Assembly (NCBI RefSeq): GCF_024502345.1
Contig: NZ_JALDNN010000001.1
Strand: one strand, 5' to 3'
Length of the DNA: 64,000 bases
Source: Escherichia coli
Lineage (GTDB): Bacteria > Pseudomonadota > Gammaproteobacteria > Enterobacterales > Enterobacteriaceae
Shown here: one piece after another, positions 15,317 through 17,214 of the stretch
How the letters are laid out: each line of letters begins with the position of its first letter
Position numbering within the stretch: position 1 is the first letter of the stretch
Position numbers and translations under genes: made by a program
Notes under the pieces: generated by a model
The model's database searches: none
Seen by the model: only the letters and a program-made list of their open reading frames with translations
What the model was told of the DNA's origin: nothing

Positions 15317-15654
15317 GTTGTGGTCAACTAAAACTGGCCACCTGAACAGAGGTGATATGCTCACCTCAGAACAACACAGGTGCCATAATGAAAAAAAGAA
15401 ATTTCAGCGCAGAGTTTAAACGCGAATCCGCTCAACTGGTCGTTGACCAGAATTACACCGTGGCAGATGCAGCCAGCGCTATGGATGTCGGCCTTTCCAC
15501 AATGACGCGATGGGTGAAACAATTACGTGATGAGCGGCAGGGAAAAACACCAAAAGCCTCCCCCATTACCCCGGAACAAATTGAAATCCGTGAGCTCAGG
15601 AAAAAGCTACAACGTATTGAAATGGAAAATGAAATATTAAAAAAGGCTACTGTA
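15317..15654 (+). mobile_element. IS3-family (IS911-like) 5' fragment with truncated orfA (from 15388)
   Basis: IS3-type end tgtggtcaactaaaactggccacctga; Orf[53 protein letters not shown]... interrupted after ILKKAT by the IS30 end. Confidence 0.6.
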
Positions 15655-16875
15655 GATTCAATCTGTCAATGCAACACCCCTTTCAATTATCTCTTTCGGT
15701 GTTTTGAACTTCAGTGTCTTTCTCGGTCTGTTGTTTAGCTGAGCAGCAACCAGATCTAGTTCATGTTGAGTATATTGGGCAAGACATGTCTTTTTAGGAA
15801 AGTACTGCCGAATTAGCCCATTTGTATTCTCATTTGTTCCCCGCTGCCAAGGACTCTGAGGATCGCAGAAGTAAACTTTAACGCCGGTGCTGACAGTAAA
15901 TTCTAGATGTCTGGCCAGTTCCATTCCTCTGTCCCATGTCAGTGATTTTCTGAGTTCTGACGGTAAACTCAGGAATTTGTCGGTAAGAGCCTGATTTACT
16001 GAGACAGAATCTTTGCCCCTGAGTCTGAGGATGATCGTATAACGTGATTTTCGGTCTACAAGTGTGGCTATATGAGAGTTTTTTGTACCTGAGACTAAAT
16101 CGCCCTCCCAATGCCCCAGAGAGCGTCTGTTATCGATATTTCGGGAACGTTCGTGAATTGGTGTTCCGTTCACTATGTTAATCGTACCTCTTTCGCCTTT
16201 GCGGGTATGACGCCTGCCATGGCGAAGGCTATGCGACCGTCGCAGATGCTGTATATTCAGGTGGTGTAGCGCTTCACGGCTACGAAAGTACAGCGTTTTA
16301 TAAATTGTCTCAGGTGATATTCGCAGCGTTTTTTGACGTGGTTTTGTTCGCCTTAACCATCCTGATATTTGCTCTGGAGACCATTTCATCTCCAGCTTTT
16401 CCAGAACAAGCTTTCGCAATGGTAAATTTTGATCCAGTAAGCACGGTTTTGGCCTTTTCGCCATTCTGTTGGCTCGGTTATTAGCATCAACAGCTTTGTA
16501 ATAGCGTCTGCCCCGATTACGCTGAACTTCACGTGAGATCGTCGAAGGACTGCGATTCAGCGCAGTAGCTATCGCACGAATGCTCATTTTGGCTGACAAA
16601 CCAGCTCGTATCTCCTCGCGCTCAGACAGTGTCAGGTGAGCTACAGCCCGCTTACGCTCATGGGGTTTTATGCCGCCAGTATCCCTTAACATAGTGAAGA
16701 TCGTTCCGGGTTTTGAACCCAGGATATTCGCTATTTCACTGAAGCCTGTTCCGTTCTTCCATAGTTCAAAAACAGAGGCTTTTTCCTCTGCTGTAAATGT
16801 TCGTCTCATTCAAAAAACCTCCGCAACCCCATGTTTTCACATAACTGTTGCGTTGACCAATTGAATCTACAGTAG
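15655..16875 (-). mobile_element. IS30 insertion sequence (complete)
   Basis: 1221 bp; ends tgtagattcaat... at both termini (inverted); transposase ORF stops 3 bp inside the left end. Confidence 0.8.
15658..16809 (-). CDS. insI: IS30 family transposase
   Basis: 383 aa, [46 protein letters not shown]..., DDE domain. Confidence 0.9.
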
Positions 16876-17214
16876 CCTTTTTTAATATCGTATTTTGCTC
16901 CTCCAGACGGCGAACCTGCTTTTCCAGCTCGCGGATACGTTGCTGGTCTGGAGTAATGGGTGTGGCAGAGGGCGTAATCCCCTGGCGCTCTCTCCTGAGC
17001 TGGCGTACCCAGCTCTCAAGCGTAGTAGAACCCACATTCATCGCTTCACTGGCCTGTCGATATGAGTAGCCCTTATCAACAATCAGCTGTGCACATTCCA
17101 GCCTGAACTCAGGGGTGAAACTACGTTTGGTTTTCTTGTTCATTAAGTCACCTGTTTTGTGTTGAGGTGAGAATATCACCTTTAATCAGGTGGCCAAATT
17201 TACTGTGCCACTAC
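16876..17214 (-). mobile_element. second IS3-family 5' fragment (inverted orientation) with truncated orfA (17143 down to the IS30 junction)
   Basis: Orf[56 protein letters not shown]... also broken after ILKKAT; IS3-type end at 17180-17214. Confidence 0.55.

Follow-up and report, generated by a model that had tools for sequence, protein, structure and literature searches.

How does a single copy of an insertion sequence (IS) come to lie between the facing halves of two different host elements, both broken at the same codon? The question is raised by a 64,000-nucleotide stretch of Escherichia coli DNA (contig NZ_JALDNN010000001.1 of assembly GCF_024502345.1; the whole stretch is referred to as the window), in which a complete IS30 separates an IS911/ISEc52-like fragment on its left from an ISEc31-like fragment on its right. 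A first-pass annotation, made from the letters alone, had described IS30 between two inverted IS3-family orfA fragments broken at the same codon, and this description held, both fragments ending in the 17-mer ATATTAAAAAAGGCTAC against IS30. The location was also right, though not the exact ends (given as 15317-17214): the IS3-type ends lie at 15316 and 17215, a shift of 1-2 nt. Judging from the sequence comparisons described below, the joint most likely originated by RecA-type homologous recombination between two resident IS30 copies, each of which would have entered its host element at the same hot spot. In what follows ISx denotes the ISEc31-like element and ISy a fifth IS3-family element. 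The joint is made up of the following features.

15316-15650, plus strand: IS911/ISEc52-like 5' fragment (left inverted repeat and orfA to ...ILKKAT), broken after GGCT-AC
15639-15645, plus strand: A-AAA-AAG slippery heptamer (-1 frameshift site) of the IS911-like orfA, read from the sequence
15651-16871, minus strand: complete IS30 of 1221 bp, with its right inverted repeat (IRR) at 15651 and left inverted repeat (IRL) at 16871, defined by terminal repeats and open reading frame (ORF)
15658-16809, minus strand: intact IS30 transposase ORF of 383 amino acids (aa), NCBIfam NF033563 transpos_IS30
16872-17215, minus strand: ISEc31-like (ISx) 5' fragment (left inverted repeat and orfA to ...ILKKAT), tip at 17215, broken at the homologous GGCT-AC
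16877-16883, minus strand: heptamer of the ISx arm (reverse complement CTTTTTT), read from the sequence

Membership in IS30 was judged by a length of about 1221 bp, terminal inverted repeats of about 26 bp starting TGTAGATTCAAT, a 383-aa ORF, a 2-bp target duplication and a nearly palindromic hot spot. The window copy carries TGTAGATTCAAT at each end in inverted orientation, its transposase matches the NCBIfam model with E 3e-82 and 276 bits (cutoff 80), and it differs from IS30A of K-12 at 2 positions; the full-length copies compared, IS30A included, show 1-5 differing positions. It lacks the target duplication, as the first-pass annotation had noticed: the left flank ends in AC and the right flank opens with GT, which are complementary rather than directly repeated. 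Such an absence is expected if the flanks stem from two different insertions. Neither a second IS30 copy nor a reciprocal junction was found within the window.

The two flanks mirror each other. Throughout the window there are just two copies of the 17-mer ATATTAAAAAAGGCTAC (15634-15650, plus strand, and 16872-16888, minus strand), each abutting one end of IS30, for a chance expectation of ~0.01 matches in 64 kb; the flanks are indeed reverse complements that each encode an OrfA N-terminal fragment ending in ILKKAT. The inverted similarity extends over 91 nt at 75% (15586-15676 / 16846-16936) and is seen again at the outer ends at 78% (15316-15400 / 17131-17215), because each flank is the homologous 5' end of an IS3-family element. 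Both arms begin with a TG-starting inverted repeat end (15316 and 17215) followed by an orfA with the Pfam domain HTH_Tnp_1 (PF01527). The left orfA starts with the ATG at 15388 and keeps its first 87 codons (E 2.6e-14; aligned with the intact ISEc52 of Nissle 1917), and the right one starts with the ATG at 17143 and keeps its first 90 codons (E 8.3e-13), at 95-96% identity to intact ISEc31 and related copies. In neither arm is there an orfB (DDE transposase) or a right inverted repeat, and no 3' half of either element adjoins the window IS30. The two arms are dead fragments that stop at the hot spot.

One explanation, a single IS3-family element interrupted by IS30 with a misread 2-bp duplication, had been named by the first-pass annotation as the outcome that would overturn its reading. 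The shared ATATTAAAAAAGGCTAC is all that speaks for it. Each fragment is a 5' end, with the left inverted repeat and the beginning of orfA, and the two point towards one another. They stem from different elements (IS911/ISEc52-like on the left, ISEc31-like on the right, as the annotation had proposed in outline and as alignment to reference elements confirmed), and they touch IS30 with AC and GT. Outside the conserved stretches the alignment of the IRL-orfA regions reveals many differences. This explanation is excluded.

Why, then, are both elements broken at the same codon? The break point is near the end of orfA, 3-5 nt past the A-AAA-AAG heptamer, which is reportedly the classical IS911 frameshift site, attributed to Polard et al. 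in 1991. This site is present in each arm of the window, and in the left arm the A-run of the IS30 target half-site is the heptamer itself. The intact target, ATATTAAAAAAGGCT-AC-CGCGCTCTT, is the same in ISEc52 and in ISEc31-like elements, the identity running through ATATTAAAAAAGGCTACCGCGCTCTT. In intact ISEc31-like copies, a -1 slip on the heptamer yields a 392-aa OrfAB that equals the coding sequence labelled 'programmed frameshift' in RefSeq. A scan for the IS30 left end returned 1 locus in species-representative genomes and 33 loci in viral contigs, the latter being used to build a collection of IS30 copies. IS30 with a clean 2-bp duplication occupies the homologous position in five IS3-family elements, in three of them in both orientations, which bears out the conserved hot spot proposed at the outset.

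IS911A of K-12: simple IS30 insertion, GGCTAC[IS30]ACCGCG, AC duplication
ISEc52 of ATCC 25922: simple IS30 insertion, 2-bp duplication, orientation opposite to the K-12 IS911A case
ISEc31-like element (L048): simple IS30 insertion, clean 2-bp duplication
IS600: simple IS30 insertion, AC duplication
ISy, fifth IS3-family element (L022, L046): simple IS30 insertion, GC duplication, both orientations

An empirical half-site was derived from 14 half-sites of 7 distinct targets, 3 of which lie outside IS elements. It has A at -11 and G at -5 in 14/14 cases, A at -8 and A at -7 in 12/14 each, and C at -4 in 11/14, positions -10 to -7 being rich in A, and each window flank fits it. Hot spots of IS30 are known to be nearly palindromic and of the non-inverted-repeat kind, simple insertion into them giving a 2-bp duplication (PMC9333248). 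Olasz, Kiss, Arber and co-workers studied hot spots in lambda and on plasmids (PMC9333248), in contrast to the natural IS3-family targets considered here; a half-site of the lambda LHS hot-spot region, AATAAAAGTGGCG, is similar to the IS3-family target. The IS3-family frameshift region is a natural, heavily used hot spot of IS30. The target stretch is conserved across IS911, ISEc52, ISEc31, IS600 and others because it holds the frameshift heptamer and GGC, and it is because the hot spot coincides with this conserved heptamer that IS30 hits the same codon in at least five different IS3-family elements. In a limited literature search, no paper was found that names the frameshift region of IS3-family elements as a natural hot spot of IS30, and the coincidence may be mildly new and under-reported.

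Two side observations concern the frameshift region and its surroundings. In IS911B of K-12 MG1655 (L053, 4444-4459) the heptamer region adjoining IS30D reads TTAAAAAGGCTAC, with one A fewer than in the other copies. A search for a frameshift-stimulating RNA at the hot spot of intact copies gave none at the Rfam gathering score, the sole match being isrC in the 5' region of orfA, which is also found in the window:

17025-17147, minus strand: Rfam isrC match (RF01387) inside the ISx orfA 5' fragment, 140 bits for a gathering score of 39

This family ('Hfq binding RNA') matches intact ISEc31-like copies equally, and it appears to correspond to the 5' part of the transcript of an ISEc31-like IS3-family element.

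The joint of the window adds one more case to a well-known behaviour, for which the K-12 reference genome offers two annotated precedents. In KpLE2 of MG1655, IS30D (insI3) lies between the facing 5' halves of two IS3-family elements, IS911B (insO) and IS600 (insM). As in the window, both halves are broken at the ...ILKKA(T) hot spot without a direct repeat, the right end of IS30 abuts the IS911 half and its left end abuts the other element, so that the window shows the same type of chimeric joint. On the other hand, the partner in KpLE2 is IS600 rather than an ISEc31-like element, and there IS600 had inserted in IS911B ~100 nt past the hot spot, with ~1 kb lost and with local outer contexts, whereas the joint of the window links loci that are megabases apart in other strains. 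The second precedent, IS911A::IS30A of CP4-6 (insN-insI1), has IS30 at the same nucleotide of the IS911 orfA (GGCT-AC) as the window. Unlike the window, the CP4-6 locus retains both IS911 halves around a simple insertion that duplicated AC, and its IS30 is reversed relative to IS911. The left side is matched by ISEc52::IS30 as in ATCC 25922 (an insertion with a junction present in about 790 complete E. coli genomes), which has the same left junction as the window (IS911-like 5' half at the IS30 right end) but retains the ISEc52 3' half and the 2-bp duplication; it is likely to represent the type of one parent.

To place these joints among other strains, junction probes were run against 5426 complete E. 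coli genomes, with the following numbers of genomes positive.

IS911 5' half with the IS30 right end (IRR): 1200 genomes
IS30 left end (IRL) with the IS911 3' half: 791 genomes
IS911 5' half with the IS30 left end (IRL): 1025 genomes
IS30 right end (IRR) with the IS911 3' half: 865 genomes
ISx 5' half with the IS30 left end (IRL): 101 genomes
IS30 right end (IRR) with the ISx 3' half: 123 genomes

Two of the 3' halves have the following sequences.

IS911-like 3' half: ACCGCGCTC...
ISy 3' half: GCGGCGTAC...

Each of the two junctions of the window exists separately, with its own context, in other strains. The left junction together with its surroundings (hemB, ISKpn26, an autotransporter gene and an IS30-family relic) is matched with 100% identity by 15 complete genomes. 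IS66 cuts the hemB-locus IS30 at ~nt 762 in strain C 236-04A, the sole one of the 15 looked at in detail; the other 14 appear, from the lengths of their matches, to be truncated likewise. The right junction, again with its surroundings (a 105-codon ORF and a chemoreceptor gene), occurs in at least five genomes, with an ISy 3' half across IS30. C 236-04A holds both junctions on one chromosome, the left at 4.43 Mb and the right at 0.82 Mb, each with another partner. The rearrangement between copies that the first-pass annotation had envisaged is supported by this distribution.

These observations are best accommodated by the following scheme. The preferred IS30 target is roughly 22-24 bp long and nearly palindromic, and ATATTAAAAAAGGCT-AC-CGCGC near the end of an IS3-family orfA is a very good match to it. 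An ancestor would have carried one IS30 in an IS911-like element beside the hemB/autotransporter locus and a second one in an ISEc31-like element within a genomic island, the left junction tracing to an insertion of the ATCC 25922 type and the right junction to one of the L048 type. Both kinds of parental simple insertion are observed, in other elements or at other loci. Homologous recombination between the near-identical 1.2-kb IS30 copies, which with 1-5 differing positions are good recombination substrates, would then have swapped the flanks, each flank staying on its own IS30 end. A single IS30 would result, its right end joined to the IS911-like 5' half and its left end to that of the ISEc31-like element. 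The orfA halves stand head to head, with AC opposite GT, because the parental insertions would have been oppositely oriented relative to their host elements. Recombination between IS3 copies instead of IS30 copies need not be invoked.

The collected IS30 copies indicate that flank replacement of this kind is not confined to the window. In ATCC 25922, ISEc52::IS30 stands beside an AbiJ-domain gene; CAU16175 keeps the left genes of ATCC 25922, and to the right of its IS30 there are an ISx 5' half and a foreign context. The two are a direct parent-and-derivative pair for flank replacement. Mixed pairs of flanks are frequent among the collected copies and include ISx-5'/ISy-3', ISy-5'/IS911-5', IS600-5'/ISEc52-5', IS911-5'/IS600-3' and ISy-5'/IS911-3'. 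One further copy (L042, IMG/VR contig 2874956758_000002, 6182-7613) has IS30 between two identical IS600 5' halves in a perfect palindrome of at least 210 nt. It was set aside, as the right arm runs for only 211 nt past IS30 before the available sequence, and perhaps the contig, ends, and an assembly artefact is possible.

Could the joint have been made in one step by the IS30 transposase? A lone IS30, in the form of an (IS30)2 dimer or another intermediate with joined inverted repeats, would attack the hot spot of a second element on the same chromosome, producing an inversion or deletion in which each IS30 end lies beside an unrelated half-target without duplication, and no second prior IS30 copy would be required. 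Junctions of this kind are documented to react with hot spots to give deletions, inversions and cointegrates (PMC9333248). The new junction would be predicted exactly at the hot-spot position, as seen, and IS911B-IS30D-IS600 of K-12, where the hot spots are only ~1 kb apart, looks like such an adjacent deletion. Yet each junction of the window exists independently with its own context and IS30 in other strains, even within one strain, and therefore prior IS30 copies at both sites are the simpler assumption. In addition, the window IS30 has the minority allele A at position 176, as does the copy at the hemB locus of C 236-04A, whereas G stands there in the island copies, which have the right junction in common with the window. 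Taken together, we consider a one-step rearrangement a serious but rather unlikely alternative to recombination between two IS30 copies.

The same junction data bear on the reality of the joint. The window joint with both of its contexts was found in 0/5426 complete genomes, and the multiple copies of IS30 differ from one another at 1-5 positions, so an assembler might have joined two IS30-ended contigs via the 1.2-kb repeat and created a false adjacency of hemB and the pheV island. Against such an artefact, two other independent records, LT883139 and CP060066, contain this hybrid core (99.8%), with both orfA halves in the same allelic form and with the first 14 nt of the right context. The window also passes three other IS copies without a break, suggesting a long-read or finished assembly, and hybrids of this type are common, with one in K-12. 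An artefact is, in our view, very unlikely.

The recurrence of the hybrid also invites the idea that it travels as a unit. In a pseudo-composite arrangement, the 1.9-kb block (left end, orfA', IS30, 'orfA, left end) would be moved by an IS3-family transposase acting in trans, and the same orfA'-IS30-'orfA architecture does recur in at least five outer contexts (the window, pHS30-1-type plasmids, F11-type chromosomes, CAU16175 and LT883139). The F11-type block is even bracketed by TATG on both sides (L008, E. coli F11, 2997-3000 and 4900-4903). The remaining evidence is contrary. A composite transposon would be marked by an outer direct duplication and an empty site elsewhere. Of five contexts checked, four, among them the window (AAC / AGC), have no duplication at the outer flanks, and probing for an uninterrupted target of the F11-type copy gave no match. 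The F11-type left flank is a patchwork of IS256/IS66 fragments, and the natural upstream sequence of its right flank already has ATATG, so that the TATG bracketing may be a coincidence. Furthermore, the IS911-like and ISx-like arms are different alleles across the contexts, as expected from separate origins, and each outer context of the window occurs alone in other genomes. Transposition of the block is the least credible of the explanations that still carry any weight.

Of the inversion and the deletion between which the first-pass annotation had left the choice open, gene order around the joint fits an inversion-type event. To the left are mmuP, tauA and hemB (window 1-11300), core genes of the hemB region in the ascending order of K-12. 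To the right follow, in order, an island module of ~0.8 kb, an IS1, a P4-type integrase, a type I restriction system and further integrases. Beyond the island come a tRNA-Phe gene (39806-39881), a 235-aa ORF in the position of yqgA, speC and nupG (39800-44600), that is, the pheV locus in descending order. Genes of the hemB and pheV regions are only ~30 kb apart and run in opposite map directions, which implies a large chromosomal inversion relative to K-12 and C 236-04A. We infer a RecA-type exchange within IS30 and a large inversion-type joint connecting the hemB locus (~0.39 Mb of the K-12 map) to the pheV island (3.11 Mb).

Several points weigh against recombination between two IS30 copies, or at least against its simplest form. 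The exchange itself is unobserved, and the window has no reciprocal joint. The informative positions of IS30 are only 176 and 377, too few to place the crossover, and 377 (G) fits neither candidate parent. The direction of change is deduced from rarity only, and the IS66-truncated hemB-locus copies (15 genomes) could derive from a window-like state. The missing duplication suits a transposase-mediated rearrangement equally. Finally, the two IS30 copies of C 236-04A are direct, and its module of ISx, hypothetical ORF and chemoreceptor gene faces away from pheV, opposite to the window. A single inversion between two inverted IS30 copies relative to C 236-04A was also considered; it does not fit the direct copies and the opposite module orientation, and therefore at least one further rearrangement is needed. 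The probable site of this further step is ~18.0 kb, where IS1 interrupts the chemoreceptor gene.

Immediately outside the left arm lies a remnant of a second element of the IS30 family, as follows.

15066-15315, minus strand: relic of a diverged second IS30-family element (right-end tip and C-terminal part of the transposase gene), by alignment

From its tip, TGTGAGTTCAAC..., the relic aligns with the IS30 right end at about two-thirds identity, and it is cut off by the IS911-like left end at 15316. The corresponding stretch of C 236-04A is annotated in RefSeq as 'IS30 family transposase, frameshifted, incomplete'. The relic is part of the context, outside the joint. Just outside it there is an inverted repeat of ~26 nt (~14963-14989 / 15010-15036; accataaggcctctacgcg... 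/ ...cgcgtagaggccttatggt). The outermost 20 nt of the left arm (15316-15335) read TGTTGTGGTCAACTAAAACT, the canonical IRL of IS911/ISEc52 being TGAAGTGGTTTACTGAATTT. This tip, shared by a few other genomes, resembles the right-end tip of ISEc52, and the outer end of the arm may be a hybrid or an undescribed variant.

On the right, the 105-codon ORF (17200-17517, minus strand; a RefSeq hypothetical) has its last five codons and stop inside the ISx inverted repeat, its natural C-terminus having probably been replaced by the ISx insertion. The methyl-accepting chemotaxis gene that follows (17617-18700 region) is cut to its C-terminal ~200 codons by an IS1-like element (~18.0-18.7 kb), a site that has the appearance of another joint made by an IS, only 0.8 kb away from the one at IS30. 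Next comes the P4-type integrase gene (18782-20044), with no adjoining tRNA. The type I restriction-modification system of the pheV island (21128-27122) comprises hsdR, an ORF of the size of a specificity gene and hsdM. Further downstream are tyrosine recombinase genes (33205-34515 and 36974-38158) and a replicative helicase-like gene (34585-36513).

What do such joints mean for the elements involved and for E. coli? Junctions of IS30 with the IS911 5' half outnumber those with the 3' half in both orientations (1025 vs 865 and 1200 vs 791 genomes), a comparison confounded by shared ancestry. Similarly, four different head-to-head 5'/5' chimeras and no 3'/3' chimera were seen, in a small sample with the same confounding. 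The apparent surplus of retained 5' halves is mildly new. It invites the speculation, which we regard as improbable, that IS30 homes to the IS3-family frameshift window, thereby splitting orfA from orfB and inactivating a competing IS, and that the resulting chimeras are non-random, keeping orfA halves that could repress IS3-family transposition in trans or form mobilisable blocks bounded by two left ends. If this were true, the kept halves would be promoter-proximal, giving truncated OrfA 'regulator fragments' in which the DNA-binding domain is retained along with most of the leucine zipper.

For genome evolution, the sequence-specific nesting of one IS in other ISs scatters identical 1.2-kb patches of homology, and such patches shuffle segments of chromosome and islands; here, IS30 patches link the hemB locus to the pheV island. 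This significance is modest. For annotation, the nesting explains why IS30 in E. coli is often flanked by unrelated 'transposase, partial' pseudogenes, and a missing 2-bp duplication marks a recombinant joint.

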